From the NCBI GenBank assembly GCA_026125445.1, contig JAHCLE010000002.1:946-64945 (forward strand): 64,000 bases of DNA. The letters are read 5' to 3'. Shown in pieces: positions 2,071 to 18,086 of this stretch. The notes below the pieces were generated by a model. The model did no database searches, was not told the DNA's origin, and worked only from the letters and a program-made list of their open reading frames with translations. Position 1 is the stretch's first letter; each line of letters starts with the position of its first letter. Position numbers and translations under genes: made by a program. Source of the DNA: Burkholderiales bacterium. Lineage in GTDB: Bacteria > Pseudomonadota > Gammaproteobacteria > Burkholderiales > Usitatibacteraceae.

Positions 2071-2080
2071 GGTGGTGGCG

Positions 2081-2632
2081 TCAGTCGAAGTGGATGAGCC
2101 CGTGGCCGAGGGCGGGTTCCTTCCCCTCGAGGAGCCCGGTGAGCACCTTCCAGATGGCGTCGGCCGGCGGCGGGCAGCCCGGGATGAAGTGGTCGATGCG
2201 CACCACCTCGTGCAGCGGGTGCACCTTGTTCAGCGGCAGCGGCAGCTCCGGATCGTTGGGGATGAGGCCGTAGCGCGCGCCCGGCTCGCTGCGGTAGACC
2301 TCCTGCAGGATGAGCGGCAGGCTGAGCGTGTTCCTCTGCGCCGGCAGCCCCCCGTTCACCGCGCAGGCGCCCAGCGCGATGAGCACCTTGCAGCGGCGGC
2401 GGAACTCGCGCAGCACCTCGACGTTCTCGGCGTTGCAGACCCCGCCCTCGATGATGCCGAGGTCGCACTGGCCCACTTCCTTGATGTCGGTGATCGGCGA
2501 GCGGTCGAACTCGACCTTCTCGAGGAGCGCGAAGAGGCGCTCGTCGATGTCCAGGATCGACATGTGGCAGCCGAAGCAGCCGGCGAGCGACGTCGTGGCG
2601 ACCTTGAGCTTGCGGGGGGCGGTTCCGTCCAT
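2081..2632 (-). CDS. hoxY: NAD-reducing hydrogenase small (delta) subunit
   Basis: 183 aa short small subunit with 'LAGCFGCHMS' and 'ALGACAVNGG' cluster motifs, located between hoxU and hoxH. Confidence 0.9.
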   Translation of the reverse strand: MDGTAPRKLKVATTSLAGCFGCHMSILDIDERLFALLEKVEFDRSPITDIKEVGQCDLGIIEGGVCNAENVEVLREFRRRCKVLIALGACAVNGGLPAQRNTLSLPLILQEVYRSEPGARYGLIPNDPELPLPLNKVHPLHEVVRIDHFIPGCPPPADAIWKVLTGLLEGKEPALGHGLIHFD

Positions 2633-2638
2633 GGCGTC

Positions 2639-3370
2639 CTAGCTCCCGTCGGCCTCGACCGCGGCGATCTCGGCCGTGGAATCCGCCCGCGCGGAGATGG
2701 GCTTCCGGTCGAAGACGCGGCTCCCGAAGGGCGTCTCGAAGCCGCGGCGCTTGTGCAGGATCACCCCCACGGGGCAGACGTGCGCGGCCTTGTCCTGGTG
2801 CGAGAAGCTCGTGTCGACGAGCCTGCCGGTGCGCGAGTTGGCGATGAGGCGCGTGCGGATCCCGCGCCCGGCCAGCGCGAACACGTTCTTGCCGTCCACG
2901 TCGCGGCTGGCGCGCACGCACAGCGAGCAGAGGATGCAGCGGTTGAAGTCGAGCAGCATGTCCGGGTGGGAGGCGTCCACCGGGCGGTCGGGATAGAAGT
3001 GGTCGAAGTGCGGCGTGCTCATCCCGAGGTCGTAGGCCGTGGCCTGCAGCTTGCAGTCGCCGCTCTTCTCGCACGACGGGCAGAAGTGGTTGCCCTCGAC
3101 GAAGAGCATCTGCACCAGCGCCCGGCGCTCGGCATTGAGCTCGGGCGTGTCGCTCTCCACCACCGCCCCGGCCGTGGCGCGCGTGGTGCAGGAAGCCGCG
3201 TGCCGGCCGCCCACCTTCACCGTGCACACCTTGCACGAGCCGTGCGGCTTGAAGTCGGGGTGGAAGCACAGGTGCGGGATGTAGGCGCCCGCGGCCACCG
3301 CCGCCTGCAGGATCGTCTGGCCCTCGCTGAAGGCGACGGGCCGGCCGTCGAGGGTGAAGGTCGCGTTCAT
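2639..3370 (-). CDS. hoxU: hydrogenase diaphorase Fe-S subunit (NuoG N-terminal-like)
   Basis: 243 aa from the ATG at 3370 (ATGA overlap with the hoxF stop). 2Fe-2S 'CFHPDFKPHGSCKVC', 'CPSCEKSGDCKLQ' and 'CILCSLCVRAS' motifs. Confidence 0.9.
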   Translation of the reverse strand: MNATFTLDGRPVAFSEGQTILQAAVAAGAYIPHLCFHPDFKPHGSCKVCTVKVGGRHAASCTTRATAGAVVESDTPELNAERRALVQMLFVEGNHFCPSCEKSGDCKLQATAYDLGMSTPHFDHFYPDRPVDASHPDMLLDFNRCILCSLCVRASRDVDGKNVFALAGRGIRTRLIANSRTGRLVDTSFSHQDKAAHVCPVGVILHKRRGFETPFGSRVFDRKPISARADSTAEIAAVEADGS

Positions 3371-5187
3371 GCGGTCTCTTCCGTCTCCGGGCGCACGTGC
3401 GCGGCCGCGTCGTCGCGCCCCGTCATCTGGCGGGCGGCGGCGAGCGCGCGGTCCAGGTCGAAGGCCGGCTCGAACTCCTCGTGCGCCAGGCGCCGCTGGT
3501 AGGCGCCGCGGAACTTGGCGATGGTGCCCAGCACGGGGTTGCAGGCCGAGTGCCCCAGCCCGCAGTGGCTCATCGACTGCAGCAGGAGGTTGAGCTTCCC
3601 GATCTCGGCGAAGTCGTAGGGCGAGCCGTGCCCGTTGGCGAGCTTGTCCATCATGTTGCGCAGGAGCGAGGTGCCCACGCGGCACGGGGTGCAGAACCCG
3701 CAGCTCTCGTGCGCGAAGAAGTGCACGAAGTTCCTCGCCACCTCGAACATGTCGCGGCGCTCGTTGAACACCATGAGCGCGCCGGCCGTGGGCAGGTCCT
3801 CGAAGGCGAGGCGGCGGCCGAACTCCGCGGCCGGGACGGTCGCGCCCGAGGGCCCGCTCACCTGCACGGCCTGCGTGAGCCGCGCGCCGCAGTCGGCGAG
3901 CACCTGGCGAACCTCGACCCCGAAGGGATACTCGTAGATCCCCGGCTGCTCGCAGTCGCCCGAGACGCACACGAGCTTCGTGCCGGTCGATTCGGGCGTG
4001 CCGATGCCGGCGTACCAGGCGCCGCCCTTCAGGGCCACGAGGCAGGAGGCGGCGAAGGTCTCCACGTTGTTCACCGCCGTGGGCTGGCCGAGGTAGCCTT
4101 GGGTCACGGGATAGGGCGGGCGGTTGCGCGGCGTGCCGCGCTTGCCCTCCAGGCTCTCGATGAGCGCGGACTCCTCGCCGCAGACGTAGGCGCCGGCGCC
4201 CACGTGGATGGCCACGTCGAAGTCGAATCCCTCGCGGCCGAGGATGGACTCGCCCAGGAGGCGCGCCGCGCGACGGCGCTCCAGCACGGCCTCGAGGTGA
4301 TCGAGCAGGAAGCGGTACTCGCCGCGCAGGTAGAGGAAGCCGCGCCTGGCGCCCGTGGCCCAGGCGCCCAGGGCCATGCCCTCGAAGATCGCGTCGGCCG
4401 CGTTGGCGAGGAGGACCCGGTCCTTGAAGTTGCCGGGCTCGCCCTCGTCGGCGTTGGCCACCAGGTAGCGCGCCTTGCCCGGCGCCTCGCGGCAGGCCTG
4501 CCACTTGAGCCCCGCGGGAAAGCCCGCGCCGCCCCGCCCGCGCAGCTTCGAGGCCTTCATCTCGGCGACGAGGTCCTCGGGCGAGCGCGCGAGCGCCGCC
4601 TCGAGGGCCCTGCCCGGAAGCCAGGGCGTGCCCAGGAGGGCGTCGCGGCGGTGGATGTTGTCCTCGACGCGGAAGAAGTCCGCGGGCCACTCGCCGGGCG
4701 GAACCTCGTCGCGGACCAGCTCGCAGATGTCGTCGACGCGGCGCTCGGTGAGGCGGGTCACCGCCAGGCCGTTCACGAGGATGGCCGGGCCCTGGTCGCA
4801 CAGCCCCGTGCACGAGGTCGTGTCCACGCTCACCAGCCCGTCCTCGGAGACCTTGCCGCGCTCGACCCACAGGCCGCGGCACATGCGGTCCAGGAGGCCG
4901 AGGCTTCCCAGCATGCGGTCCGTGATGTTGTCGCTGAAGAGGATGCGGTAGCGGCCGGCGCGCTTGAGGTGCAGGAAGGAGTAGAAGGACGCCACCCCGA
5001 GGATCTTGGCGCGCGGCAGCGCGAGCCGCGCCTCGATGCAGTCGATGGCTTCCGGCGGTATCCAGCCGCAGGCCTCCTCGACGTCGCGCAGCATCTGCAG
5101 CAGTTCCAGCGGATCGTGGCGGTGGCGCGCCATCGCCGTCGCCGCCGCTTGGGCGGGGTCGGGGGCGTTGCGCACCTTGGAGGGCAT
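3367..5187 (-). CDS. hoxF: hydrogenase diaphorase NAD/FMN subunit (NuoE-NuoF fusion)
   Basis: 'GRGGAGFPAGLKW' FMN/NADH site and 'ESCGFCTPCR' 4Fe-4S motif. The start is uncertain: ATGs at 5235, 5196 and 5187. 5187 has an AGGA 8 nt upstream. Confidence 0.9.
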   Translation of the reverse strand: MPSKVRNAPDPAQAAATAMARHRHDPLELLQMLRDVEEACGWIPPEAIDCIEARLALPRAKILGVASFYSFLHLKRAGRYRILFSDNITDRMLGSLGLLDRMCRGLWVERGKVSEDGLVSVDTTSCTGLCDQGPAILVNGLAVTRLTERRVDDICELVRDEVPPGEWPADFFRVEDNIHRRDALLGTPWLPGRALEAALARSPEDLVAEMKASKLRGRGGAGFPAGLKWQACREAPGKARYLVANADEGEPGNFKDRVLLANAADAIFEGMALGAWATGARRGFLYLRGEYRFLLDHLEAVLERRRAARLLGESILGREGFDFDVAIHVGAGAYVCGEESALIESLEGKRGTPRNRPPYPVTQGYLGQPTAVNNVETFAASCLVALKGGAWYAGIGTPESTGTKLVCVSGDCEQPGIYEYPFGVEVRQVLADCGARLTQAVQVSGPSGATVPAAEFGRRLAFEDLPTAGALMVFNERRDMFEVARNFVHFFAHESCGFCTPCRVGTSLLRNMMDKLANGHGSPYDFAEIGKLNLLLQSMSHCGLGHSACNPVLGTIAKFRGAYQRRLAHEEFEPAFDLDRALAAARQMTGRDDAAAHVRPETEETA

Positions 5188-5268
5188 CGCCGGCATCCTG
5201 TGGGCGGGCCGCCGGACCGGCGGTCCCGCGACCACGCTTCCACCCTACCCCGGCGCGGCGACGCTTTC

Positions 5269-5282
5269 TTGACGCCGATCTA
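5269..5282. promoter_or_regulatory. FNR/CRP-family box-like site TTGAC-GCCG-ATCTA upstream of hoxF
   Basis: 9 of 10 half-site positions match TTGAC-N4-ATCAA. Centre is about 80-90 nt upstream of the candidate hoxF starts. Confidence 0.35.
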
Positions 5283-5416: not shown

Positions 5417-6022
5417 CTACACCGGCGGGCGGGCGGCGCCCTCGGCCTGCTCGATGATGGCGAGCGCCACCTCGTCCACGGGCAGGCCAGAGGCCACGGC
5501 GCGGTCGTGCAGCATGCGCACGGCCACGTCGCAGTTGACCTTGTGCCGCTCGACGAGGATGCCGAGCGCGATGAGGGCCTGCGGGCCGTGGTCCCCGCCC
5601 AGGGCCTCCAAGAGGAGATCGGCTCCCCCGGCCGCTTTCGCGGGGGCCGCCGGGCGCTCCAGCGCGGCGCGTACCGCGGGCACGAGGCGCGACAGGTCCA
5701 CGGGCTTGGCGACCACGCCCACGGCGCCGAAGGAGGCGGCCTGGCGCCGCACCTCGGGCTCGTCGCGCGGGGGAGCGAGCAGCAGGAAGGGCACGTGCGT
5801 CTCGTGCGCGAGGAACCGCGCCACCTCCAGGCCGCTGCCCTCCGCCATGGTGACGTCGAGGATCGCGAGCGCCGGGCGGGTGTCGACGGCAACCCGCATG
5901 GCCTCGTCGGCGTTGGTGGCCACGACCACGTCGAAGCCCGCGCGCGAAAGCCCGGAAAGCAGCGTGGACAGGACGACGCGGTCGTCGTCCACGACCAGGA
6001 GGCGGGGCCTTGCCTGCATCAT
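5417..6022 (-). CDS. response regulator with ANTAR RNA-binding output domain
   Basis: Receiver domain ('LVVDDD', phospho-acceptor in 'AILDVTM', 'VVAKP'). C-terminal ANTAR-like 'ALIALGILVERHKVNCDVAVRMLHDRAVASGLPVDEVA'. Confidence 0.85.
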   Translation of the reverse strand: MMQARPRLLVVDDDRVVLSTLLSGLSRAGFDVVVATNADEAMRVAVDTRPALAILDVTMAEGSGLEVARFLAHETHVPFLLLAPPRDEPEVRRQAASFGAVGVVAKPVDLSRLVPAVRAALERPAAPAKAAGGADLLLEALGGDHGPQALIALGILVERHKVNCDVAVRMLHDRAVASGLPVDEVALAIIEQAEGAARPPV

Positions 6023-6045: not shown

Positions 6046-6438
6046 ATGCCGGACCCCCGACCGGGTCCGGGGACCGCCTTGAACGCCCTTCGACTGCTGC
6101 CCGTGGTGCTCGCCTTCGGCGTCCTCGCCGCCCACTTCTACCGCGCCTACGCGTGGGTGCCGTTCGGCATCACGATCGGGCTGCTGCCCCTGCTCTTCGT
6201 GCGCGCCCCCTGGGCCGCGCGCGTGCTGCAGGGGGCGCTCCTCCTGGGCGCGCTGGAGTGGCTGCGCACCGCGGCGGTCCTCATCGCGATGCGCCAGTCC
6301 ATGGGCCAGCCCTGGACGCGGCTCGCCGTCATCCTCGGCGTCGTGGCGCTGGCCACGGCGGGCTGTGCCCTGCTCTTCCAGTGGCGGCCGGTACGGGAGC
6401 GCTTCGCGATGGGCAAGGCGGATCATCCCGGCTCCTAG
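6046..6438 (+). CDS. hypothetical small integral membrane protein (about 4 TM segments)
   Basis: 130 aa hydrophobic ORF with normal composition, divergent from the ANTAR regulator. No family recognised. Confidence 0.5.
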   Translation: MPDPRPGPGTALNALRLLPVVLAFGVLAAHFYRAYAWVPFGITIGLLPLLFVRAPWAARVLQGALLLGALEWLRTAAVLIAMRQSMGQPWTRLAVILGVVALATAGCALLFQWRPVRERFAMGKADHPGS

Positions 6439-7913
6439 CGCACCTGGCCGTAGAGGCACACGCGGTTGCGGCCGGAGCGCTTGGCGTCGTAGAGGGCGTC
6501 GTCGGCCTGGCTCATGAGCGTGTCGAGGTTCGCGTTGCCGGCGAGCGTGGCCACGCCGAGCGAGACGGTCACCCGCAGCGGGACGCCCTCCTCGCGCGCC
6601 ACCTCGGAGGCTTCCACCGCGGCGCGCAGCCGCTCGGCCACCTCCACCGCGCCCTCGATCGCCGTCTCCGGCAGCAGGATGGCGAATTCCTCGCCCCCCA
6701 CGCGCCCCACGACGTCGACGGCCCGCAGCACCTCGAGGCAGGTGCGGGCGAGCTGCTGCAGGACGCGGTCGCCGGCGCGGTGGCCGTGGGTGTCGTTCAC
6801 TTCCTTGAAGCGGTCGATGTCGAGCATCAGGATCGAGAGCGGCGTCTCGTAGCGCCGGCTGCGCGCGAGCTCCGCGTCGGCGACCTCGAAGAAGTGCCGC
6901 CGGTTGGCCAGTCCCGTGAGCGGGTCGGTGTGCGCCTGCGTCTCGAGGATGTGGGCGATGCGCCGCTGCCGGCGCCAGGCGCGGTCCACCATGAGGGTGG
7001 CGCCGATGGCCACGGCGAAGAGCACGCTCGAGAGCACGGCCACCACGCCCATGTCGCGGCGCCAGTGCCCCATGTACTCGGCCGTGGCGCGCCCCACGGT
7101 CACGTGCAGGGGGTAGCCCGTCACCTTGCGGTACGAGTAGAGACGGTCGGTCCCGTCCACCGGCGACACGTCGTGGAAGGTTCCCGAGATCTCGCCGCGC
7201 GAGACCAGTTCGCGCAGGCCGGCCGGCACCTCGTAGGCCTGTCCGCGTTCCGGGAACGGGGGATGGCGCGCGATGAGGCCGAGGTCCTCGCCGCGCACGC
7301 TCACCGCCCCGGTGGGGCCCACGTCGGCCGCCGCGAGCATCGTCACCAGGCGCTCCACCGGAACGGGCGCGACCACCGCGCCGGCGAATCTCCCGTCCGG
7401 GTACTCGTAGCGGCGCGCGACGTCCACGACCCAGGGGCCGTCGGGACTGTCGCGGTGCGCCTCCGAGATCGCGAGCCCGGAGAAGTGCCCGTCGCGCAGC
7501 TTGCGGAAATAGGGGTGGTTCTCGATTCCCGGGGCCGGGGCGTCGGCGAATTCGCTCTGGAGGATCGGGTGGCCGGCGGCGTCGGTGACCCGGATCGCGA
7601 GGACGTCCGGCAGGTTGGCGTGGATGGCGGCGATGTAGGCGCGCGCGGCCTGCTCGTCCGTTCCCCGTCCCGCGAGGCGCCGCTCCTGCTCCGTGGCCAC
7701 CGTGTGGATGGCGAGCCGCACCTTGTCCACCAGGTTGCCGATGTCGCTCTCGAGGACGCGCGCGACGCTGTAGGTCTCGACGACCGCCTGCTCCTCGTGC
7801 TGCTGCCGGCTGGTGTAGATCGACTGGCCGATGAGGATGGCGATGAGAAGCAGCAACGAGGCCACCACGCGCCACAGGCGCGTGACGAAGCGGCCCGCGT
7901 GAAGCTGTTCCAA
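6435..7913 (-). CDS. diguanylate cyclase with N-terminal TM and Cache-like periplasmic sensor
   Basis: 492 aa. 'RAVDVVGRVGGEEFAILL' gives an active-site GGEEF plus an RxxD I-site. Large extracytoplasmic region lies between two TM segments. Confidence 0.85.
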   Translation of the reverse strand: MEQLHAGRFVTRLWRVVASLLLLIAILIGQSIYTSRQQHEEQAVVETYSVARVLESDIGNLVDKVRLAIHTVATEQERRLAGRGTDEQAARAYIAAIHANLPDVLAIRVTDAAGHPILQSEFADAPAPGIENHPYFRKLRDGHFSGLAISEAHRDSPDGPWVVDVARRYEYPDGRFAGAVVAPVPVERLVTMLAAADVGPTGAVSVRGEDLGLIARHPPFPERGQAYEVPAGLRELVSRGEISGTFHDVSPVDGTDRLYSYRKVTGYPLHVTVGRATAEYMGHWRRDMGVVAVLSSVLFAVAIGATLMVDRAWRRQRRIAHILETQAHTDPLTGLANRRHFFEVADAELARSRRYETPLSILMLDIDRFKEVNDTHGHRAGDRVLQQLARTCLEVLRAVDVVGRVGGEEFAILLPETAIEGAVEVAERLRAAVEASEVAREEGVPLRVTVSLGVATLAGNANLDTLMSQADDALYDAKRSGRNRVCLYGQVR

Positions 7914-8505: not shown

Positions 8506-8946
8506 TCAGTGGACCTCGACCCGGTGCGCCGCGGAGCCCTTCGCCTTCGGCAGCGTGAGCCGCAGCACGCCCTCGGCGTACTTCGCCTCCGCCTTTGCGA
8601 ACTCGACCTCGGTCGGCAGCGTGAACGAACGCGTCATCGCCCCGTAGTAGCGCTCGCTGCGAAGGACCTTGCCTTCCTTCTCGTCCTTCTTCTCGCGGCG
8701 CACCTCGGCGGAGATCGTGACCCGGTTGCCGTCGACGTCCACGCGGATGTCGTCCTTCGTCACGCCCGGCATGTCGGCCTTCACCATGAACTTGTCGGCA
8801 GCCTCTTCGACGTCCAGCCTGATGACGGGAGCCATGCTCTCCGTTTCCATCCACATCGGCGGAAGCAGGCCCTTGAAAACGGAGGGTACGTCGAACGCCG
8901 GATCGAAGAGGGTGAGGGGCTTGAGGGTTCCCATGGCATCCTCCAT
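8506..8946 (-). CDS. small heat-shock protein, Hsp20/alpha-crystallin family
   Basis: 'DMPGVTKDDIRVDVDGNRVTISAE...GAMTRSFTLP...A.YAEGVLRLTLPK' alpha-crystallin domain. Start ATG 8946 or 8934. Confidence 0.85.
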   Translation of the reverse strand: MEDAMGTLKPLTLFDPAFDVPSVFKGLLPPMWMETESMAPVIRLDVEEAADKFMVKADMPGVTKDDIRVDVDGNRVTISAEVRREKKDEKEGKVLRSERYYGAMTRSFTLPTEVEFAKAEAKYAEGVLRLTLPKAKGSAAHRVEVH

Positions 8947-9046
8947 CGCGATTCCTGGCCGCGGCGGCGTCAGCACCACCGCCGCACGGGGCGCCATCGC
9001 ATCCCGCCCCGCAGCGATAGCCTAGGACGGCCGCGCGCGGGGCGTG

Positions 9047-9060
9047 TTGCCGGGAGTCAA
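9047..9060. promoter_or_regulatory. FNR/CRP-family box-like site TTGCC-GGGA-GTCAA upstream of hsp20
   Basis: 9 of 10 match to TTGAC-N4-GTCAA. Overlaps the stop codon of the ACP-like gene, about 107 nt upstream of the hsp20 start. Confidence 0.3.
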
Positions 9061-9311
9061 GAATCCTGCGGATTTCGTGCCACGACGTAGGCGGCGATCT
9101 GGTCGAGCGTGGCGAGCGTGGCGTAGTCGGACTCGGCGATCTCGACCTTGAAGCGCTGGTGGACGGCGATGAGGAAGTTGAGCCAGTCCATGGAGTCGAG
9201 GTCGACCTGGTCGCGCAGCAGCTTGTCGGGGGCCACGTCGCCCTCCTCCAGCTCGGGGGCGATCTTGCGCAGCTCCTGGAAGAGGAGCGGGACGAGTTCC
9301 TTCGCGTTCAT
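9057..9311 (-). CDS. acyl/peptidyl carrier protein-like (phosphopantetheine-binding) protein
   Basis: 84 aa. 'DQVDLDSMDWLNFLIAV' matches the DSL/DSM phosphopantetheine attachment motif and its helix II context. ATGA overlap with the E2 stop. Confidence 0.75.
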   Translation of the reverse strand: MNAKELVPLLFQELRKIAPELEEGDVAPDKLLRDQVDLDSMDWLNFLIAVHQRFKVEIAESDYATLATLDQIAAYVVARNPQDS

Positions 9312-10420
9312 AGTTTTTCCGGCTCCTGGAGTCGGCGGGAGAGCTCGGCGAGGAAGGCGGCGCCGCGGTGGCCGTCGCTCACGCGGTGGTCCGCCGAAAG
9401 GGTCGCGACGACCACGGGCCGCGCGACCACGGCCCCCTCCTCCACCCACGGCCGCAGGGCGATCCTGCCGAGGCCGACGATCGCCACCTGCGGGGGATAG
9501 ATGACGGGATAGGTCGCCTCGACGCCGGTGTCGCCGAGGTTGGTGATCGTGATGGTGGGATCGGAAAACTCGGAGCTGCGCAGGCTCCCCGCCCGCGCGC
9601 GCTTCACGAGGTCGGCGAGCTTCGCCATCAGGTCGTCGATGGCGAGGTCCTGCACGTCGCGGATGCCGGGCGCCACCAGTCCCCCCTGGCGCAGCGAGAT
9701 GGCCACGCCCGTGTTCACCGAGGCGGAAGGCTGGTAGGCGCCGTCGCGCCAGGTGCCGTTCAGCTCCGGGAAGCCGCGCAGGGCGAGCGCCACCGCCTTG
9801 AGCTGCACGGCGGCCATGAGGATGCGCCCGGTGAGCGGGCGGCGGGCGTTCTCGGCAGAGAGCCAGTCCTGCGCCCGCTGCATCGGGATGGACTCCGCGA
9901 GGTAGTAGTGCGGGATCTCGCGCTTGGAGCGGCTCATGGCGGCGGCGATGGACTTGCGCATCTCGGCCCCGCGGTCGACGGGGGCCGCGGCCGGCACCGC
10001 CTTCGTCGCCCTCTCGACGTCCTCGATCGTCACGGCGCCGTGCGGCCCGGTGCCCGGGATGCCCTCGGGGTCGATGCCCAGCTCGCGCGCCCGGCGGCGG
10101 GCCGCGGGAGACACGGGCCGGCGTTCGCCCGCGACGGGAGGACCGGGCGGCAGCGGGACCGCGGGCGCCGCGCCGGGCTTCTCGCCCGGGGCGAGGAAGC
10201 GCGCGATCGTGGTGCCCACCGGGATCGTCGTGCCCGGCTCGACGAGGAGCGACTCCACCACGCCTTCCTGCCAGGTCTCGACCTCGACCGCGGCCTTCGT
10301 GGTGTCCACGACCGCCACCACGTCGCCCTTCCTCACCGCGTCCCCGGGCTTCACCTTCCACTCGAGGAGCTTGCCCTCGTCCATGTCGGCGCCGAGGGAC
10401 GGGAGCTTGAACTCGATCAT
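9308..10420 (-). CDS. 2-oxo acid / acetoin dehydrogenase E2 (dihydrolipoamide acyltransferase)
   Basis: 370 aa. N-terminal lipoyl domain ('[12 protein letters not shown]'), E3/E1-binding domain ('[28 protein letters not shown]') and catalytic 'DHRVSDG'. Confidence 0.9.
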
Positions 10421-11382
10421 TGGAAGAGGCCCCTCGCGGCCGCCACGATCTTCTCGGGTTGCGGCAGGGCCGCCTCCTCGAGGTGCTTCGGGTACGGGAT
10501 GGGCACTTCCTCGCGGCAGACGCGAGCCACCGGGGCGTCGAGGTCGTAGAAGGCCTGCTCCATGATGCGGGCCACGATCTCGGCCGAGAGGCTGCCGCTC
10601 CTCCAGCCCTCGTCCACGATCACCGCGCGCCGCGTCTTGCGGACCGAGGCGAGCACGGTGTCCATGTCCAGGGGCCGCAGGACGCGCAGGTCCACGACCT
10701 CGGCGTTGATCCCCTCCGCGGCGAGCTTCTCCGCCGCCGAGAGCGCCTTGGGCACGCAGCCGCCGTAGGCCACGATCGTCACGCGCGTGCCCTGGCGGCG
10801 CACGGCCGCGTGGGCGATGTCGACCGGGGTGCTGGACAGGTCGCCCGCGGTCTCGAAGAGCGCCGGATACTCGAAGACGAGCACGGGGTTGTCCTCGGCG
10901 AGCGCCGCGCCCAGCATGCCGTGCGCATCGTCGATGGTGGCGGGCGCCACGATCTTGAGTCCCGGCACGTGCGCGTACCAGCCCTCGAAGCTGTGAGAGT
11001 GCTGGGCCGCGAGCTGGCGCCCGGCGCCCGTGGCCATGCGGATGACGAGCGGGACGGCGAACTGGCCTCCCGACATGTGGCGCAGGATCGCGGCGGTGTT
11101 CACGATCTGGTCGAGCGGCAGCAGGCTGAAGTTCACCGTCATCACCTCGACGATGGGCTTCATTCCCCCCAGGGCGGCGCCGATGCCGGCGCCCACGAAG
11201 GCGAGCTCGGAGAGCGGCGCGTCGCGCACGCGCTCGGGCCCGAACTCCTCCAGCAGCCCCTTGCTCACGGCGTAGGTGCCGCCGTAGCGGCCCACGTCCT
11301 CGCCCACCAGGAAGACGCGCGGGTCGCCCGCCAGCGCCTCGCGCAACCCCTGTCTCAATGCCTCGCGGTAGGTGATCGTCAT
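10417..11382 (-). CDS. 2-oxo acid / acetoin dehydrogenase E1 beta subunit
   Basis: 321 aa from the ATG at 11382. Typical '[20 protein letters not shown]...RVRDAPLSE' transketolase-Pyr domain. ATGA overlaps at both ends. Confidence 0.9.
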
Positions 11383-12377
11383 GGCGCGTACACGTCCTTC
11401 GTGAGGTCCTCGACCGGCTCCCAGTCCCCGGCCTCGGCGAAGGCGACGGCGCGCTCGACCTCCGCGGCCACCTGGGAGTCGATGTCGAGGAAGCGCTCCT
11501 CGGTGAGGTGGCCCTGCTCCTTGAGGCGCGCGGTGAAGGTGTGGATGGGCCCGCGCTTCTTCCACTCCTCGACCTCGGCCTTTTCGCGGTAGAGCTCTGG
11601 GTCGAACATCGAGTGGGCGCGGAAGCGGTAGGTGCGGAACTCCACGAAGACGGGCCCGCCGCCGGCCATCACGCGCTCGCGCGCGCGCCGCGCCCCCTCG
11701 TAGCAGGCCACCACGTCCATCCCGTCCACGGCGAAGGCTTCGATGCCGTAGGAGGCCGCCTTCACGGCGAGGTCCGTCTGCGACTCCGAGCGCTCGATGG
11801 CCGTGCCCATCGCATAGAGGTTGTTCTCGCAGAAGAAGGCGACCGGCAGCTTCCAGAGCGCCGCGAGGTTCACGGACTCGTGGAAGGCGCCCTCGGCCAT
11901 CGCGCCCTCGCCGAAGAAGCAGGCGGTGAGCCGCTCCTCGCCGCGCAGCTTCGCGGCCAGGGCGAATCCCACGGCGAGCGGAAGCCCTCCACCGACGATG
12001 GCATTGCCCCCGTAGAAGCGCGCGTGCGCGTCGAAGAGGTGCATGGAGCCGCCGCGGCCGCGCGAGCAGCCCTCCTTCTTGCCGAACATCTCGGCCATGA
12101 TGCGTTCCATGGGAACGCCCTTGAGGAGCGCGTGCCCGTGCTCCCGGTAGGTGGCCACCACGTTGTCGCCGCGCGCGAGCGCGTGCATCGCGCCCGTGGC
12201 CACCGCCTCCTCGCCGATGTACAGGTGCAGGAAGCCGCGGATCTTCGCCGCGCCGTAGAGCTCGGCGCACTTCTCCTCCATGCGCCGGATGCGCAGCATG
12301 TCCTTCAGGAGTTTCAGGGAATTCTCGCGCGCGAACGGAACGGGCCCGGAAGGCGGCGCGCTGGCGGCGTGGCTCAT
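11379..12377 (-). CDS. 2-oxo acid / acetoin dehydrogenase E1 alpha subunit (ThDP-binding)
   Basis: 332 aa from the ATG at 12377. ThDP motif '[38 protein letters not shown]', with GEG in place of the usual GDG. Confidence 0.9.
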
Positions 12378-14080
12378 GATCCTCCCTCCAGGGTGGAGAG
12401 GTCTCCCTCGGGCAGGCCCAGCTCGCGCGCCTTGAGCAGCCTGCGCATGATCTTGCCGCTCCTCGTGCGCGGCAGCGTCGTGGCGAACGCGATCTCCTTG
12501 GGCGCGATGGCGGCCCCCAGGCGCTTCCTCACGTGGCCCAGGATCTCCATGCGCAGCGCCTCGTCCGGGACGAACCCGGTCTTTAGCGAGACGAAGGCCT
12601 TCACGATCTCGCCCACCACCGGGTCGGGCTTGCCGATGACGCCCGCCTCGGCCACGGCGCGGTGCTCCATGAGCACGCTCTCGACCTCGAAGGGGCCGAT
12701 GAGGTGGCCGGCGGACTTGATCACGTCGTCGGCGCGGCCCACGAACCAGAAGTAGCCGTCGGCGTCGCGGCGCGCGAGGTCGCCCGTGAGGTACCAGCCG
12801 TCGACGAAGCACTTGCGGTAGCGCTCGTCCTGGTCGAGGTAGCCGCGGAACATCGAGGGCCAGCCCGGGCGCAGCGCGAGCTCGCCCTCGGTGCCGGGGG
12901 CGGCCACGATCTCCAGGCCGTCGTCCTTTCGGTGCACGATAGCCGCCTCCACGCCCGGCAGGGGCTTGCCCATGGAGCCGGGCTTCACGTCCATGGCGGC
13001 GGTGTTGGCGATCATGATCCCGCCGGTCTCCGTCTGCCACCAGTTGTCGTGGATCGGCATGCCGAACGCGTCCATCCCCCACCACACGGCCTCGGGGTTG
13101 AGCGGCTCGCCCACGCTCGCCACGAAGCGAAGCCGCGGGAAGGCGTGCGTTCGCGCGAGCTCGGCCCCGGCCTTCATGAGCATGCGGATCGCCGTGGGCG
13201 CCGTGTACCAGACGCTCACCCGCTCCTCCTCGAGGATGCGGTACCAGCGCTCGGCGTCGAAGTCGGCCTCGTCCACGATGCTGGTCACGCCGTGCACCAG
13301 GGGCGTCACGATGCCGTAGGAGGTGCCGGTGACCCAGCCGGGATCGGCCGTGCACCAGAACACGTCGTCCGGGTGAAGGTCGAGCGCGACCTTGCCGGTG
13401 GCGCAGTGCATCACCACGGCGCCGTGCACGTGCACCGCCCCCTTGGGCATGCCCGTCGTGCCGCTCGTGAAGTGCAGGAAGGAGGTGTCCTCGGCCGTCG
13501 TGGCCGCCACTTCGCATTGCGGCGAGGCCGCGGCGAATTGCGCGCGGAAGTCTGCCGAGTCCACGCGCAGCACGTTCGCGAGCGTGGGCATCGGCACCGC
13601 GATCTTCGCCACCTTCTTCTGGTAGAGCGCCTCGGTGGTCACGAGCACCTTGCCGCGGCCCATGGCGATGCGCGTGGCGATGGGCTCGGGCCCGAAGGCC
13701 GAGAAGAGCGGCGAGACGGCCGCCCCCAGCTTGAGCGCGCCCAGCACCGCGAAGTAGAGCTCCGGCACTCGCCCGCACAGCACGAAGACGACGTCGCCCC
13801 TGCCCACGCCCAGCCCGCGCAGCAGGTTGGCGAAGCGGCTCGAGGACTCGTCGAGCTCGCGGTAGGTGATAGGGCGAACCTCGCCCGTGGCCGGGTGCCA
13901 GCGGATGGCGACGCGATCGGCGAGCGCGCCGCGCGCGTGCCTCGCGACCGCCTCCCACGCGATGTTCAGGCCTCCGCCGGGCAGCCCGTCGAGGAGCCGG
14001 CGCGCCTCGTCCCAGCCCATCGCGGGGTTTGGGGGCGCCGGCAGCGCCGCGAGATCCTTGTGGATGACGGCCGGTCTCAT
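12374..14080 (-). CDS. AMP-forming acetyl-CoA synthetase family ligase (short AcsA-like form)
   Basis: 568 aa from the ATG at 14080 (AAGGAG RBS). '[10 protein letters not shown]', 'WWQTETGG' and C-terminal 'SGKIMRR' adenylate-forming motifs. Confidence 0.85.
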
Positions 14081-14167: not shown

Positions 14168-14183
14168 GTTGACCCCGGTCAAC
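14168..14183. promoter_or_regulatory. FNR/CRP-family box GTTGAC-CCCG-GTCAAC
   Basis: Perfect TTGAC-N4-GTCAA inverted repeat with the FixK/FNR core TTGA-N6-TCAA. About 77 nt from the ppdK ATG and about 95 nt from the ligase ATG. Confidence 0.5.
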
Positions 14184-14252: not shown

Positions 14253-17003
14253 ATGACATCCCGCACCGCCAGGAAAGCTCGCGCGCCGCAGCCCCGCCGC
14301 GCCGCGACCGAGAAGTGGGTCTACCTGTTCTCCGAAGGCAACGCGCGCCGCAAGGACCTCCTCGGCGGCAAGGGCGCGAACCTCGCCGAGATGACGCGCA
14401 TGGGCCTTCCGGTCCCGCCGGGATTCATCGTGAGCACGCGCGCGTGCAACGCCTACCTCGCCGCCGGCGGCTTCCCCGCCGGCATGTGGGCGCAGGTCGA
14501 GCGGGCGCTCGCCAAGGTCGAGCGCCTGGCCGGCAAGCGACTGGGCGACGCCGCGAACCCGCTCCTCGTCTCGTGCCGCTCCGGCGCGCGATTCTCGATG
14601 CCGGGGATGATGGACACGGTCCTCAACATCGGCATGAACGACGCCGTGGCCGCCGGCATCGCGAAGCTCACCGGCGACGAGCGCTTCGTGAACGACGCCT
14701 ACCGGCGCCTGGTGCAGATGTTCGGCACCGTGGTGCTGAACCTCCCGGACGAGCCCTTCGAGGAGGTGCTCGCGCGCGCGCGGAAGGCCCACGGCGTGGC
14801 GAACGACGCCGACCTGGGCGCGGCCACGCTGCTGGAGGTGACCGCGGAATTCAAGCGCATCGTGAAGGCGCGCGCGAAGCGCCCGTTCCCGGACGATCCG
14901 CTCGAGCAGCTGAAGCTCGCGACGGAGGCGGTCTTCAGGTCGTGGAACGGCAAGCGCGCCATCGACTACCGCAACGCCGCGGGCATCGCGCACGACCTGG
15001 GCACGGCGGTCAACATCCAGACCATGGTCTTCGGCAACATGGGCGCGGGCTCGGGCACGGGCGTGCTCACCACCCGCAACGTCACCACGGGCGAGGCGCG
15101 CCTCGAGGGCGACTGGCTTTCCAACGCGCAGGGCGAGGACGTGGTGGCCGGCACGCGCGCCACCCGCCGGATCGAGGAGCTCAAGGGCGAGATGCCGCGC
15201 ATCCACGCCGAGCTCGCGCGCCACTGCCGCACCCTGGAACGGCACTTCCGCGAGGTGCAGGACGTCGAGTTCACCATCGAGCGCGGCAGGCTCTGGATGC
15301 TGCAGACGCGCGACGCCAAGCGCACGGCGCAGGCCGCGGTGAGGATCGCCGTCGATCTCGCCGGCGAGAAGCTCATCACCCGCGACGAGGCGGTCATGCG
15401 CGTCTCGCCCGACCACGTGGACGCCTTCCTGCACCCGCAGTTCGACCCGCGCGAGAAGACGGCGGCGAAGAAGCGAGGCGACCTGCTCGCCTCGGGGCTG
15501 AACGTCTCGCCGGGCGCGGCGAGCGGCATCCTCGCCTTCGACGCCGACACCGCCGAGCAGTGGGGCGCCCGCGACGGCAAGGCCGTGATCATGGTTCGCC
15601 CCGAGACCAAGCCCGACGACGTGCACGGCATGCTCGCCGCCAGGGGGATCCTCACCAGCCGCGGGGGACGCACCAGCCACGCGGCGCTCGTGGCGCGCCA
15701 GTTCGGCAAGCCCGCCGTCGTCGGCGTGTCCGCGATGGAGGTCGACGCCGAGGCGCGGACCTTTACGATCGACGGCCGCCTCTTCCGCGAGGGCGACGCG
15801 GTCTCCATCGACGGCACCACGGGCGAGGTGTTCGCCGGGAGCCTGAAGACGGTGGTGCCCGAGTTCACCGACCCCTACCTCGCGAAGCTGCTGGGCTGGG
15901 CCGACGGCTTCCGCCGCCTGGGGGTCTGGGCCAACGCCGACTACCCGCGCGATGCCGAGAGAGCCCGCGGCTACGGGGCGCAGGGCATCGGCCTGTGCCG
16001 CACGGAGCACATGTTCTTCGAGACCGAGCGCCTGCCGCTGGTGCAGCAGATGATCCTCGCCACGACCGACGCCGAGCGCGAGGGGCCGCTCGCGAAGCTC
16101 CTGCCCTTCCAGAGGAGCGACTTCGTCGGGCTCTTCCGCGCCATGGACGGCCTGCCGGTCACCATCCGTCTCATCGACCCGCCGCTGCACGAGTTCCTGC
16201 CGGCGCACGACGAGCTCCTGCGCGACGTGACCGAGATGCAGACGCGGGCGACGCTGGCCCCCGGGGGCGACCCGCTGGGCCTCGCCGGCACGCTCGAGCA
16301 GAAGAAGCGCCTGCTGGCGGCCGTGGAGGCGATGCGCGAGGCGAACCCCATGCTGGGGCTTCGCGGCGTGCGCCTGGGCATCCACCTGCCGCAGCTCGTG
16401 CGCATGCAGGTGCGCGCCATCGTAGAGGCCGCCTGCCGCTGCAAGCGCGAGGGCGTCAAGGTGAAGCCCAAGATCATGATCCCCCTCACCGCGCACAACA
16501 ACGAGCTCAAGGTCGAGGAGGCGATCCTCGAGGCCGAGGCGCGCGCGGTGATGAAGGAGCAAGGCGTGCGCGTGGACTACCAGTTCGGCACGATGATCGA
16601 GATCCCGCGCGCGGCGCTCACCGCCGGCGAGATCGCCCGCTACGCCCAGTTCTTCTCCTTCGGCACCAACGACCTCACCCAGACCACCTTCGGCATCTCG
16701 CGAGACGACGCCGAGACCGGCTTCCTGCAGGAGTACCTCGAGCGCCGCATCCTGCCCGAGAACCCCTTCGCGACCCTGGACCAGGCCGGCGTGGGCAAGC
16801 TCATGGAGATGGGCGTGCGGCTGGGGCGCGAGGTGCGCCCCGACCTGGAGGTGGGCATCTGCGGCGAGCACGGCGGCGACCCGGCGACCATCCGCTTCTG
16901 CCACCGCATCGGGCTGGACTACGTGAGCTGCTCGCCCTACCGCGTGCCCGTGGCGCGGCTTGCCGCCGCCCAGGCGGCCCTGGCCGACGCCGGCCGGCGT
17001 TAG
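14253..17003 (+). CDS. ppdK: pyruvate, phosphate dikinase
   Basis: 916 aa. '[10 protein letters not shown]' ATP-grasp N-terminus, catalytic His in '[18 protein letters not shown]', and PEP-utilising TIM domain '[11 protein letters not shown]'. Confidence 0.95.
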
Positions 17004-17058: not shown

Positions 17059-17141
17059 GTCAGGGCGTGTATTCCGGCGCATGTTGCAGTTGTAGCGTCC
17101 ATAGTCCCGGGACCAGGGGCACGGCGCGACAGGAGGCCCAC

Positions 17142-18086
17142 ATGAGCCAAGGCGCGCAGGCGGAAGCATCCCTCTCTCCCCGTATCGGCATCTACGGGAT
17201 CTTCGACCGCATCCCCTTCCTGAAGGGCAAGTACGCGCAGAAGTTCGCGGCCGCGACCGTCATCGCCGTGGTGCCGCCGCTGGTGATCCTGCTCTCCTAC
17301 CTGCTCTTCGCGAACGACGTCTCCGAGAACGCCAAGAAGCTGCTGCCGGCCCTGGGGCTCACCTATCTCGGCGGCTTCATGGCCATGCTCTGGTTGCACC
17401 AGGGGCTGCTCGCCCCGGTGGTCATGTCCTCGACGGCCATGAAGAAGTACCTCGACGACGGCCGCGCGCCGCAGATGAACGCCCCCGCCGGCTTCTACGA
17501 CGAGGCCGGGCGCCTCATGGGCCGCACGCAGTACGTGCTGGAGCTCCTCGAGCGCTGGGGCGCGCGCATCGAGAGCCTCACGGACCTCGACGACATCACC
17601 GGCGTCTACACGCGGCGCGCGGGCGAGAAGCGCCTGGGCGAGGAGATCGCCCGCAGCGAGCGCGACGACACCACCTTCCACGTCCTGCTGGTGGACATGC
17701 GGGCCTTCGGCGCGGTGCGCGAGGAGCACGGCTACGGCGCGGGCGACGTCTGCCTCGTCCAGATCGCCGCGGACCTCATCGCCAACACCCGCAAGGGCGA
17801 CTGGATCGCGCGCTGGGGCAACGACCGCTTCCTCGTCGGCCTGCACCGCAACCGCAGCGCCAAGCTCGTCACCGACCGCATCCTGCACGCCATCGACTCG
17901 GTGCCCTGCCAGGTGGCCCCCGGCAAGGAGATCGCGGTGCGCGTGTCCTGCGCGGTGATGGAATACCGCCTCGGGCTCGGCCCGGAAAGGCTCCTGCAGC
18001 GGCTCGACGAGGCGCTGGCGGAAGCCAAGTTCAAGAGCGTTCCCGGCGGGCCCTCGCGGGCCGTCTTCCGGCTGGGCGAGCGCTAG
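17142..18086 (+). CDS. membrane-anchored degenerate GGDEF-domain protein (GNDRF active site, RxxD retained)
   Basis: AGGAGG RBS. Two TM segments, then a GGDEF fold '[16 protein letters not shown]...[18 protein letters not shown]'. Confidence 0.75.

Follow-up and report, generated by a model that had tools for sequence, protein, structure and literature searches.

Why should an operon that encodes the E1 and E2 components of a 2-oxo-acid dehydrogenase end in a gene for an acyl carrier protein (ACP), and from where would it draw its E3 component? We addressed this question in a 64-kb window (the whole stretch of DNA analysed, 64,000 nucleotides) from a Burkholderiales bacterium, which contains the following features:

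12374 to 14080, minus strand: AMP-forming acetate ligase, AcsA-type, 568 aa (NF003313; solved relative 9g79)
11379 to 12377, minus strand: E1 alpha, thiamine-diphosphate binding, PDH type, 332 aa (TIGR03182)
10417 to 11382, minus strand: E1 beta, 321 aa (Transket_pyr and Transketolase_C; NF006667)
9308 to 10420, minus strand: E2 acyltransferase, 370 aa (lipoyl, PSBD and catalytic domains)
9057 to 9311, minus strand: predicted acyl carrier protein, 84 aa (PF00550; AlphaFold model)
14253 to 17003, plus strand: pyruvate phosphate dikinase ppdK, context, 916 aa (Pfam PPDK_N, PEP-utilizers, PEP-utilizers_C)
8506 to 8997, minus strand: Hsp20/alpha-crystallin gene hsp20, context (Pfam HSP20)
14169 to 14182, no strand: FNR/CRP-type palindrome TTGACCCCGGTCAA in the ligase-ppdK gap

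The five minus-strand genes (ligase, E1 alpha, E1 beta, E2 and carrier) lie where a preliminary description of this DNA had placed them, with an ATGA overlap at each of the four junctions, and the motifs that it quoted are all present (WWQTETGG in the ligase, GEG in E1 alpha, DHRVSDG in E2 and DLDSMD in the carrier). The block is flanked by the divergent ppdK (ATG at 14253) on one side and hsp20 on the other. Neither promoter-like nor terminator-like sites were found inside it, and its gene order is conserved across phyla, which together mark the five-gene arrangement as more than chance. The complete set of five is colinear in 64 of the 80 best loci (most of the others are interrupted by contig ends), and hosts of the cassette include Alpha-, Beta- and Gammaproteobacteria, Desulfotalea (Thermodesulfobacteriota) and the Actinomycetota Mycobacterium, Rhodococcus and Streptomyces. 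A literature search found no paper describing the cassette.

The carrier matches PF00550 (30 bits versus a cut-off of 20.8), and its Ser40 sits in an invariant motif, QVDLDSMDWLN. Its AlphaFold model (pLDDT 87) predicts a canonical, confident ACP fold in which helix II begins at Ser40 and which resembles type II ACPs (TM-score ~0.8); given the invariant serine motif and this predicted fold, the carrier looks functional. The preliminary description held that the carrier belongs to the system and proposed a survey of how often an ACP gene follows E2 in other genomes. Such a survey bears the idea out: in 78 of the 80 best genome loci, the gene immediately upstream of the carrier is E2. Searches for the carrier family gave 1291 homologues, 726 clusters at E<=1e-10 and, in a survey of genomes, relatives in 507 species genomes. 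In 48 loci the E2 stop codon overlaps the start codon of the carrier by 4 or 1 bases, and the two genes stay side by side in loci that lack the ligase or E1 genes or have them elsewhere (L022, L060, L035 and L055). In the plasmid database PLSDB, the clades of E2 and of the ligase are both restricted to the cassette: every E2 match at >=42% identity is carrier-linked (next matches <=34.5%), and the ligase matches comprise 33 records at 59.7–68.6% identity, all from cassettes, followed by Bacillales AcsA at <=48.9%. Judged by this linkage, the carrier gene clearly belongs to the cassette as an integral and not an incidental member. E2 and the carrier appear to be the tightest pair, for which the partial correlation of evolutionary distances with the carrier (highest for E2, at 0.31, versus 0.10 for the ligase) is weak evidence.

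E1 alpha carries an E1_dh domain, exceeds the cut-off of TIGR03182 (PDH_E1_alph_y; 456 versus 394 bits) and has human PDH E1 alpha as its closest solved structure (E 3e-73). The locus had been described as a 2-oxo-acid/acetoin dehydrogenase-like system; E1 and E2 are indeed accompanied by a ligase and a phosphopantetheine-type carrier, but E1 alpha scores as a PDH and not as an acetoin dehydrogenase. The GEG at residues 156–158, which had been set against the canonical GDG, marks no defect, since 60 members of the E1 alpha family have GEG and 12 have GDG. E1 beta (NF006667, 399 bits versus a cut-off of 321) is the most conserved protein of the cassette. E2 comprises one lipoyl domain, an E3_binding domain (PSBD, residues 103–136) and a 2-oxoacid_dh catalytic domain; its lipoyl Lys42 and DHR.SDG core (residues 344–350, with catalytic Asp344-His345 and Asp349) are invariant among 74 sequences, and the PSBD is conserved. 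The E2 C-terminus (...LQEPEKL) is 2–4 residues shorter than in solved E2s, with a short, polar 'knob' helix. This helix forms trimer-trimer contacts in E2 cores, which in their closed form normally admit CoA from the interior (PMC8421416). The short C-terminus is only suggestive of a core that may not be closed, in which case the acceptor site would be exposed to a protein substrate.

The reported lack of an E3 gene in the operon extends well beyond it: the block ends at ppdK and hsp20, and the disulfide motif of lipoamide dehydrogenase occurs nowhere in the window, nor in about 100 related loci. Because E3 is lacking family-wide while the E3/E1-binding domain is conserved, E3 is probably borrowed from elsewhere in the cell.

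The ligase (AMP-binding and AMP-binding_C domains) exceeds the cut-off of the acetate--CoA ligase model NF003313 (888 versus 729 bits), and its best solved relative is the 572-aa AcsA 9g79 (E 3e-161). It has Trp347/348 at the acetate gate and Lys543, the A10 lysine, in an acetylatable motif, SGKIMRR. Arginines 191, 526 and 584 of Acs are highly conserved and required for the CoA step (PMC10455477). Arg518 of the ligase is the equivalent of Salmonella Acs Arg584, and the position of Arg526 is taken by Leu460, a leucine found without exception in 63 of 63 cassette ligases. Carrier-loading adenylating enzymes also usually have arginine at this position, so its loss is not a signature of carrier use.

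Genomic context ties the carrier to the ligase as well as to E2, through a link to Pat-type GNATs that was not foreseen in the preliminary description. Among the 150 best representatives of the carrier family, at least 7 are fusions of the carrier to a GNAT, in which the GNAT is Pat-type (PDB 9isq, 9it0, 4nxy, 4oll, 4ava; NCBIfam 'acetyltransferase Pat'), and a Pat-type GNAT gene lies beside the cassette in 13 loci, leading a six-gene operon in L118. Members of the family thus occur joined to Pat-type lysine acetyltransferases or beside them, in some cases with only the ligase present: fusions without E1/E2 adjoin ligases 55–72% identical to the window's (L100, L107, L111, L112 and L115), which share the leucine signature wherever the region is present (L100, L111 and L112). 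Most cassettes, including that in the window, have no GNAT within 8–10 kb; the carrier is always kept. In our literature search, a fusion of a GNAT with a carrier domain from this family was found described nowhere.

The palindrome TTGACCCCGGTCAA falls within the 172 bp that separate the ligase start (14080) from the divergent ppdK start and is conserved in relatives, in agreement with the proposal that the operon and ppdK share an FNR-type box. Matches to TTGATNNNNATCAA with at most two mismatches number 15 in the window versus 3.0 expected, and no shuffle reached 15. Among related loci, 34 of 65 have the box TTGA[TC]N4[AG]TCAA upstream of the ligase gene, including most proteobacterial copies. 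A one-mismatch box, TTGCCGGGAGTCAA (9047–9060), precedes hsp20, which lies just downstream of the carrier gene in all close relatives and near the cassette in Cupriavidus, Sinorhizobium, Leisingera and Streptomyces. The divergent ppdK arrangement recurs in L007 and L010, with ppsA in its place in Rhodococcus DK17 and Leisingera. Neighbouring genes encode Usp, Hsp20, BON, CBS, Crp/Fnr, hemN, hemerythrin, nitroreductase and DosR/OsdR-like regulators, and low-oxygen and stress genes surround the cassette in every phylum examined. Control by oxygen limitation is supported by these predicted boxes and neighbours. Antibiotic biosynthesis and classical acetoin catabolism were rejected as settings, the surroundings being a low-oxygen/stress island.

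The reading we prefer, and to which we give an even chance, is that the carrier is a dedicated acetyl carrier serving both E2 and the ligase. The five genes would form one transcription unit, which an FNR-type regulator would activate under oxygen shortage and whose product would be a self-contained acetyl-handling module. PDH-type E1 alpha/beta would decarboxylate pyruvate and reductively acetylate the single lipoyl domain of E2, whose intact His/Asp active site would hand the acetyl group to a thiol acceptor. This acceptor would be, at least partly, the phosphopantetheine arm of the 84-aa carrier translated along with E2, so that acetyl-S-ACP would form. The AcsA-like ligase would act on the same carrier, either loading it from acetate and ATP or unloading it, and the lipoamide dehydrogenase of housekeeping complexes, borrowed via the conserved PSBD, would re-oxidise the reduced lipoyl group. 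In relatives with a Pat-type GNAT, acetyl-ACP might be the GNAT's donor or regulatory input, with the conserved Lys543 of the ligase as its likely target. Gene linkage, from which we infer the acceptor, suggests that acetyl groups may travel on a private carrier and not only on CoA. The deviations of the cassette ligase and E2 from CoA-dependent enzymes (leucine for Arg526; a short, polar knob helix) would favour carrier use. Against it, the ligase passes the curated acetate--CoA ligase equivalog cut-off and keeps Arg518, whose Acs counterpart binds the CoA 3'-phosphate, a group that the carrier arm would lack. Furthermore, no E2-carrier fusion was found among the 120 best E2 homologues, nor a phosphopantetheinyl transferase as a conserved neighbour (ORF clustering, about 85 loci), and an NADH-producing PDH would be an odd choice at low oxygen unless the NADH is disposed of.

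In a different account, which we consider rather unlikely, the enzymes would be ordinary CoA-dependent isoenzymes (a PDH and an acetyl-CoA synthetase, both for low oxygen) and the carrier a regulatory or sensor subunit with no pathway flux. Its holo or acetylated state would report acetyl supply to a Pat-type acetyltransferase, which would turn the ligase off at Lys543, by analogy with Pat enzymes elsewhere that so use nucleotide-, cAMP- or amino-acid-binding N-terminal domains. The GNAT fusions and neighbours fit this account, as do the ligase's SGKIMRR lysine motif, its CoA 3'-phosphate arginine and its score as an acetate--CoA ligase. However, most cassettes keep the carrier with no GNAT nearby, and the fact that E2 and the ligase form distinct clades, with a deviation peculiar to each, speaks for more than isoenzymes. 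Since a regulatory carrier would still need to be acetylated, whether by E2, by the ligase or by the GNAT, this account overlaps with that of a dedicated acetyl carrier and does not exclude it.

We find it doubtful that the cassette is an Aco-like route for acetoin, or for another ketol or 2-oxo acid, with an acetate-activating enzyme (compare Cupriavidus acoE and Bacillus acsA-acuABC), in which E1 would cleave acetoin, acetaldehyde would be oxidised to acetate and the ligase would activate the acetate. The ligase most resembles Bacillus AcsA, which is encoded next to acetoin-utilisation genes, a heterotetrameric E1 with a single-lipoyl E2 is the Aco architecture, and in Streptomyces the cassette directly adjoins an alcohol dehydrogenase gene. 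Yet E1 alpha lies above the curated cut-off of the PDH equivalog TIGR03182, a model designed to leave out acetoin dehydrogenase; the acetoin E2 model NF011457 fits the lipoyl part only (75 bits versus a cut-off of 307); acoR, acoX and acoL-like genes are absent; the recurrent neighbours are PEP/pyruvate enzymes; and the carrier is left unexplained. Very improbable, finally, is a biosynthetic role in which E1/E2 would supply a C2 starter or extender, via the carrier, for the making of lipids, polyketides or non-ribosomal peptides. E1/E2-type loading of an ACP in naphthyridinomycin and quinocarcin biosynthesis is a precedent, and Sinorhizobium has a large acyltransferase gene at a distance of ~8 kb. 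However, ketosynthase, NRPS, PKS and acyltransferase genes did not emerge as conserved neighbours when the ORFs of about 85 loci were clustered, the surroundings consist of stress and low-oxygen genes in every phylum examined, and the Nap/Qnc E1-like parts are annotated as ketose-using transketolases whereas E1 here scores as a PDH.

Among known systems, the cassette can be compared with PDH complexes with a heterotetrameric E1 (alphaproteobacterial/mitochondrial; TIGR03182, NF006667, TIGR01349): E1 alpha and beta are above curated cut-offs, E2 has the same three domains and DHR...DG core, and human and fungal PDH E1 and E2 are the best solved relatives. Hosts of the cassette normally use a homodimeric AceE-type E1. 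The cassette differs from the PDH complex in the translational coupling of a carrier gene to E2, the lack of a nearby E3 gene at any of about 100 loci, a TIGR01349 score for E2 of only 223 bits (cut-off 445), a lipoyl motif T-[TSP]-K-A-A instead of DKA, a short, polar knob helix and probable low-oxygen control. Bacillus-type AcsA with a GNAT partner (AcuA; Pat elsewhere) resembles the ligase in length, domain order, gate Trp, A10 Lys and NF003313 score, and Pat-type GNAT genes likewise recur beside the cassette. However, Bacillales AcsA forms a separate clade (>=60% identity within the cassette versus <=49% to AcsA), Acs has Arg526 in place of the invariant leucine, and the GNAT of the cassette family is often fused to a carrier domain.

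Peng et al. (2012, PNAS 109:8540) reportedly described E2-type transfer to an ACP in the Nap and Qnc systems. According to PMC7570522, which cites Peng et al. 2012, the two-component transketolases of these systems pass a C2 unit to an ACP, so the tetrahydroisoquinoline precedent named in the preliminary description stands; NapB/NapD/NapC and QncN/QncL/QncM share with the cassette a thiamine-dependent E1-like part, lipoyl-dependent transfer and a small dedicated ACP acceptor. Compared by their descriptions, they differ in lying in NRPS clusters, drawing a glycolaldehyde unit from a ketose phosphate and having no acetate ligase, whereas the cassette has no NRPS/PKS neighbours, a PDH-type E1 and a low-oxygen stress setting. 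Citrate lyase has a gamma-subunit ACP with an acetate:SH-ACP ligase, CitC, and curacin CurA has a GNAT-ACP loading module. Although both belong to protein families unrelated to the cassette's, with another prosthetic group on the citrate lyase ACP and the order GNAT then ACP within a polyketide synthase in CurA, they show that an AMP-forming ligase or a GNAT can put acetyl on a carrier thiol, the chemistry proposed here for the cassette.

The five cassette genes lie in one block on the minus strand:

12374–14080, minus strand: acetate ligase, 568 amino acids
11379–12377, minus strand: E1 alpha, 332 amino acids
10417–11382, minus strand: E1 beta, 321 amino acids
9308–10420, minus strand: E2, 370 amino acids
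9057–9311, minus strand: carrier protein, 84 amino acids

At all four junctions (4/4) the start codon of a gene overlaps the preceding stop in an ATGA, and no promoter-like or terminator-like site was found inside the block. The five-gene operon with four such overlaps claimed in the preliminary description therefore stands, every ORF and junction reading at these positions, and the motifs it had singled out are each present (WWQTETGG in the ligase, GEG at E1 alpha residues 156–158, DHRVSDG in E2, and DLDSMD in the carrier). The cassette is flanked by a divergent pyruvate phosphate dikinase gene (ppdK, ATG at 14253) and an hsp20 gene (8506–8997) in DNA of 72% G+C, and proteins identical to those of the window are on record from Burkholderiales and Betaproteobacteria metagenome bins.

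The smallest product matches the carrier domain PF00550 (30.3 bits against a cut-off of 20.8) and has 1291 detectable homologues. Twenty-seven positions are invariant in an alignment of 24 homologues, including QVDLDSMDWLN around Ser40, and the AlphaFold model (pLDDT 87) is a four-helix ACP in which helix II spans residues 40–54 and Ser40 stands at its start. This conservation and the predicted fold reject a chance ORF in GC-rich DNA. Ser40 is the putative phosphopantetheine site; a phosphopantetheinyl transferase gene was not among the conserved neighbours when ORFs from about 85 loci were clustered. The model aligns to solved type II ACPs with TM-scores of 0.77–0.84 at 14–25% identity, and the best NCBIfam ACP models score 25–32 bits, below their cut-offs of 66–84; this identity and these scores do not support orthology to the fatty-acid-synthesis protein AcpP. 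Pipelines call the cassette genes acsA, pdhA, and "acyl carrier protein"; the GO term attached to the last, fatty-acid synthesis, is probably wrong for this protein.

The carrier belongs with the other four genes, and the set is conserved far beyond the window. In a scan of one genome per species, 507 species genomes held carrier relatives. E2 lies directly upstream of the carrier in 78 of the best 80 loci, and orthologous operons without the carrier, which the preliminary description had named as a ground for refutation, were not seen in the available data. The full set of five is colinear in 64 of these 80, with 12 of the other 16 cut by contig ends, and in 48 loci the E2 stop and the carrier start share 4 bases or 1. 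Among the hosts are many Burkholderiales as well as Rhodocyclaceae and some Gammaproteobacteria, and about a third of the best 80 loci come from Mycobacterium or Mycolicibacterium. Plasmid-database replicons bearing the cassette were found in Cupriavidus, Ralstonia, Burkholderia, Paraburkholderia, Azospirillum, Methylocystis, Sinorhizobium, Leisingera, Sulfitobacter, Tropicibacter, Photobacterium, Rhodococcus, Streptomyces, Embleya, and the strict anaerobe Desulfotalea psychrophila. All E2 matches of at least 42% identity in this database (PLSDB) are carrier-linked, the next best reaching at most 34.5%; as sampled there, the E2 clade is limited to the cassette. Clustering of the ORFs from about 85 loci gave no universal extra neighbour (E3, phosphopantetheinyl transferase, or ketosynthase), and yielded only lineage-specific ones, such as aldose epimerase and flavohaemoglobin in mycobacteria or MgtE and MFS proteins in some Betaproteobacteria. 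No E2–carrier fusion occurred among the 120 best E2 homologues.

Several individual copies depart from the common arrangement. The large conjugative plasmid of D. psychrophila LSv54 carries a full cassette (locus L096, 6207–12536) with a lipoate–protein ligase gene directly after the carrier gene; no other copy seen had a lipoylation enzyme of its own. On a Leisingera methylohalidivorans plasmid (L095, 8845–10842) a single 665-residue fusion protein combines E1 alpha and E1 beta. The E2 match covers residues 113–370 only in several records from Leisingera and Streptomyces, and one Leisingera aquaemixtae record (NZ_CP041158.1, H71) has a "biotin/lipoyl-containing protein" annotated separately. 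Among mycobacterial loci a conserved ORF (11340–13232 in locus L071) matches PF10712 (NAD-GH), a family that is often a shadow-ORF artefact in GC-rich DNA; it lies opposite an equally conserved cluster of 622-residue ORFs and was left out of the analysis.

Judged by their sequences, the cassette enzymes are intact, with three family-wide peculiarities. E1 alpha scores above the cut-off of the pyruvate dehydrogenase (PDH) E1 alpha model TIGR03182 (456 against 394 bits) and E1 beta above that of NF006667 (399 against 321 bits). PDH complexes act on pyruvate and pass the acetyl group to CoA; here pyruvate is the putative substrate. The thiamine diphosphate/Mg motif G[DE]G...NN of E1 alpha reads GEG...ENN. 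Since Glu and Asp interchange across the family (60 sequences with GEG, 12 with GDG), the Glu is, by this comparison, a tolerated variant of the Mg/ThDP ligand, and we rejected GEG as an E1-inactivating defect. E2 has one Biotin_lipoyl, one E3_binding (PSBD), and one 2-oxoacid_dh catalytic domain by Pfam; its lipoyl Lys42 and its Asp344 and His345 are invariant in 74 aligned sequences, and the DHR.SDG core is conserved. Whereas ordinary E2s carry the lipoyl lysine in DKA, cassette E2s have T-[TSP]-K-A-A. Their C-terminus (...LQ.PE.L, ...PEKL in the window) is polar family-wide, as are any residues beyond it, and is 2–4 residues shorter than that of every solved E2 with which it aligns. In canonical E2s, by contrast, a short hydrophobic C-terminal knob helix links trimers into closed 24- or 60-mers, and CoA approaches the active site from within the closed shell (PMC8421416). 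The shortened polar knob hints that the core is perhaps not closed, leaving the acceptor side open to a protein substrate.

PDH complexes have a third component, the lipoamide dehydrogenase E3, unlike the cassette with its flanks of 8–12 kb. The earlier claim that the operon has no E3 gene proved correct and extends further: the lipoamide-dehydrogenase disulfide motif is absent from the whole 64-kb window, and no E3 signature lies within 8–12 kb of any of about 100 related loci. Because the PSBD is nevertheless conserved across the cassette family, the simplest assumption is that E3 is borrowed from outside the cassette.

The ligase belongs with acetate–CoA ligases (NF003313, 888 bits against a cut-off of 729), and both its acetate gate WWQTETGG and its A10-lysine motif SGKIMRR are invariant in 63 cassette ligases. 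Arg191, Arg526, and Arg584 of Salmonella Acs, three arginines of the CoA step, have been described as highly conserved (PMC10455477). Arg584 corresponds to the invariant Arg518 of the cassette enzymes, and Arg191 falls in a segment without alignment to the short AcsA-type enzymes. At the position of Arg526, where Bacillus AcsA and enterobacterial Acs have Arg, all 63 of the 63 cassette ligases have Leu460; replacement of the equivalent Arg lowered kcat 130–326-fold in one enzyme and about 2-fold in another (PMC10455477). Among PLSDB ligase matches, 33 at 59.7–68.6% identity fall in the same records as the carrier-linked E2s, followed after a gap by Bacillales AcsA at no more than 48.9%, so that within the plasmid database this Leu-type ligase clade is limited to the cassette.

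Rearranged loci help to identify the partners of the carrier. E2 and carrier stay adjacent in a locus lacking ligase and E1 (L022), in one lacking the ligase (L060), and in two with other genes between E1 beta and E2 (L035, L055). Distance-matrix (mirror-tree) partial correlations with the carrier were 0.31 for E2, 0.23 for E1 beta, and 0.10 for the ligase, weakly favouring E2 as its partner. A profile search of 1.84 billion representatives returned 726 carrier-family clusters at E<=1e-10, and at least seven of the best 150 of these have the carrier domain joined to a C-terminal GNAT, a protein-lysine acetyltransferase of the Pat type. When metagenomes were scanned with the fusion, it stood directly after or before a ligase, with no E1/E2 (L100, L107, L111, L112, L115); the ligases adjoining fusions are 55–72% identical to that of the window, and the Leu signature of the cassette ligases, GHL[IV]G, recurs in those of L100, L111, and L112. 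Stand-alone Pat-type GNAT genes also adjoin the cassette in 13 loci of the initial collection. One locus (L118) is a six-gene operon in the order GNAT–ligase–E1 alpha–E1 beta–E2–carrier, and in another (L133) the cassette is followed by a second, GNAT-fused carrier. Thus, across these arrangements, the carrier family stands beside three acetyl-handling enzymes: E2, the Leu-type ligase, and the Pat-type GNAT. In some metagenome contigs (among L099 and L103–L116) the fusion has no E2 or ligase in the available flank, and it therefore also exists as a free-standing stress-island gene; that of L099 is surrounded by Usp, CBS-BON, glycogen phosphorylase, and BON genes.

We propose, with confidence evenly balanced between acceptance and doubt, that the carrier holds an acetyl thioester, that E2 loads it, that the ligase acts on the same carrier, and that the GNAT, where present, uses the acetyl-carrier. 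In the window's cassette the co-translated E2 would be the most likely loader, the acetyl group passing from pyruvate through E1 and the lipoyl group to the carrier. The ligase might serve as a second loader from acetate or work in reverse. In GNAT-bearing relatives the acetyl-carrier may be donor or signal for the GNAT, whose obvious target, by analogy with Pat/AcuA and Acs, would be the ligase's own conserved lysine. The main rival, which we consider rather unlikely, is that E1/E2 and ligase are both still CoA-dependent, with the carrier as no more than a regulatory partner for the GNAT; retention of Arg518 and a score at the acetate–CoA ligase equivalog level speak for it.

The palindrome TTGACCCCGGTCAA (14169–14182) sits between the ligase and ppdK starts, bearing out the earlier suggestion that operon and ppdK share an FNR-type box. 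Boxes of this form (TTGA[TC]N4[AG]TCAA), mostly perfect matches, precede the ligase gene in 34 of 65 loci, which take in essentially every proteobacterial one. Neighbouring genes vary by lineage and are alike in kind: ppdK, or ppsA with a PfkB-family kinase; universal stress proteins, Hsp20, BON, CBS, and DUF2267 proteins, and Lon or FtsH; Crp/Fnr regulators and GAF-kinase/LuxR-type pairs of the DosS/DosR kind; and hemN, hemerythrin, nitroreductase, nicotinate phosphoribosyltransferase, and alcohol dehydrogenase. In Bradyrhizobium, microoxia induces islands of a comparable kind (PMC6515984), and in actinomycetes such islands are under OsdR/DevR control (PMC5069765). The similar ppsA/pfkB/Usp/Hsp island of the Bradyrhizobium microoxia papers does not include the cassette, and the OsdR targets (PMC5069765) include ppdK and Usp and no PDH. 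The Streptomyces fungicidicus copy has an OsdR-like site 286 bp upstream. Directly upstream of the mycobacterial ligase genes there is no DosR box (GGGAC-N6-GTCCC), the nearest being a conserved near-match about 1.1 kb upstream; the DevR-like near-palindrome GGGACGGCACCGTCCT lies at about that distance (about 1085 bp) from seven mycobacterial copies. From gene context and boxes we conclude that the cassette is a predicted part of a low-oxygen or dormancy regulon.

Two improbable readings fit this context poorly. An acetoin cleavage system is the less improbable of them; the Aco-type E2 model NF011457 matches only the lipoyl part, at 74.7 bits against a cut-off of 307, and no acoL-type E3 is adjacent. 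A biosynthetic supply line is very improbable; neither the conserved neighbours of about 85 loci nor the annotated plasmid records include NRPS, PKS, or ketosynthase genes.

Further features surround the cassettes. In five mycobacterial loci (L053, L059, L070, L085, L090) a conserved small ORF (...AWEFLCSPYTGRIYWDWSLERRLDAYLRHQDR...) lies about 250 bp upstream of the ligase gene, directly before it, and a flavohaemoglobin-like gene comes before it in turn; the gene immediately upstream of acsA in Rhodococcus DK17 is that of a "dsRBD fold-containing protein". A one-mismatch FNR-type box in the window, TTGCCGGGAGTCAA (9047–9060, between the carrier stop codon and hsp20), suggests that hsp20 may have its own low-oxygen promoter. 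Other genes of the window are:

577–5235, minus strand: operon of a soluble, NAD-linked [NiFe] hydrogenase of the HoxFUYH kind, some 4 kb past the cassette
5417–6022: response regulator, a signalling gene near the cassette
6435–7913: dCache-GGDEF diguanylate cyclase, a signalling gene near the cassette
17139–18086: second GGDEF protein, after ppdK
54807–56651: metallophosphoesterase-domain gene
56720–59407: CotH-kinase-domain gene

The hydrogenase operon encodes a 51K/2Fe-2S/4Fe-4S subunit, an Fer2_4/NADH-G subunit, an Oxidored_q6 small subunit, and an NiFeSe large subunit, and has a two-mismatch FNR-type box just upstream (5269–5282); it could be a sink for PDH-made NADH under low oxygen. Its synteny with the cassette recurs in the close relatives L007 and L010, where the signalling genes around the cassette are also conserved. 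The metallophosphoesterase and CotH-kinase genes, each preceded by a perfect TTGAC-N4-GTCAA box (54840–54853 or 56680–56693), lie in a stretch of lower G+C (0.65–0.69 against about 0.72).

A bolder and unlikely extension of the acetyl-carrier proposal is that the carrier serves as a CoA-independent acetyl currency of oxygen-starved or dormant cells, charged from pyruvate by E1/E2 or from acetate by the Leu-type ligase. A Pat-type GNAT could spend acetyl-carrier on lysine acetylation, in which case a ligase–carrier–GNAT line would have no need of acetyl-CoA. Alternatively, the ligase could run in reverse, turning acetyl-carrier, AMP, and PPi into acetate and ATP; with the neighbouring PPDK or PpsA this would amount to substrate-level ATP synthesis directly from AMP.

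The cassette is widespread and mobile, on plasmids and chromids of Cupriavidus, Burkholderia, Rhodococcus, Sinorhizobium, Leisingera, Streptomyces, and Desulfotalea, and it shares islands with genes that are under study for hypoxic persistence in mycobacteria and Burkholderia, namely universal-stress, alpha-crystallin, and DosR/FNR-controlled ones. Tied by this setting to hypoxic persistence, it offers a directly testable entry to the pyruvate and acetate handling of non-fermenting aerobes once oxygen is gone, and the carrier–GNAT fusions point to an undescribed input into lysine acetylation of acetyl-CoA synthetase. If the carrier accepts acetyl, the cassette would show that a central step, the formation of an acetyl thioester from pyruvate, can run apart from the CoA pool.

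Each part is of a known kind: E1/E2 are PDH-type, the ligase is a Bacillus-type AcsA, the carrier has a type II ACP fold, and the GNAT of the relatives is Pat-type. A full-text literature search covering part of the relevant papers found no description of the five-gene combination, and a prior description is possible; a paper on the Burkholderia lxa locus makes no mention of the cassette. The nearest functional precedent is Nap/Qnc of the tetrahydroisoquinoline antibiotics, which differs in substrate, genomic setting, and partners: Nap/Qnc is located in an NRPS biosynthetic cluster, whereas the cassette has no NRPS/PKS neighbours. Should the carrier accept acetyl, the cassette would be a primary-metabolism counterpart of that rare antibiotic-pathway transfer in which a lipoyl enzyme hands a C2 unit to an ACP.
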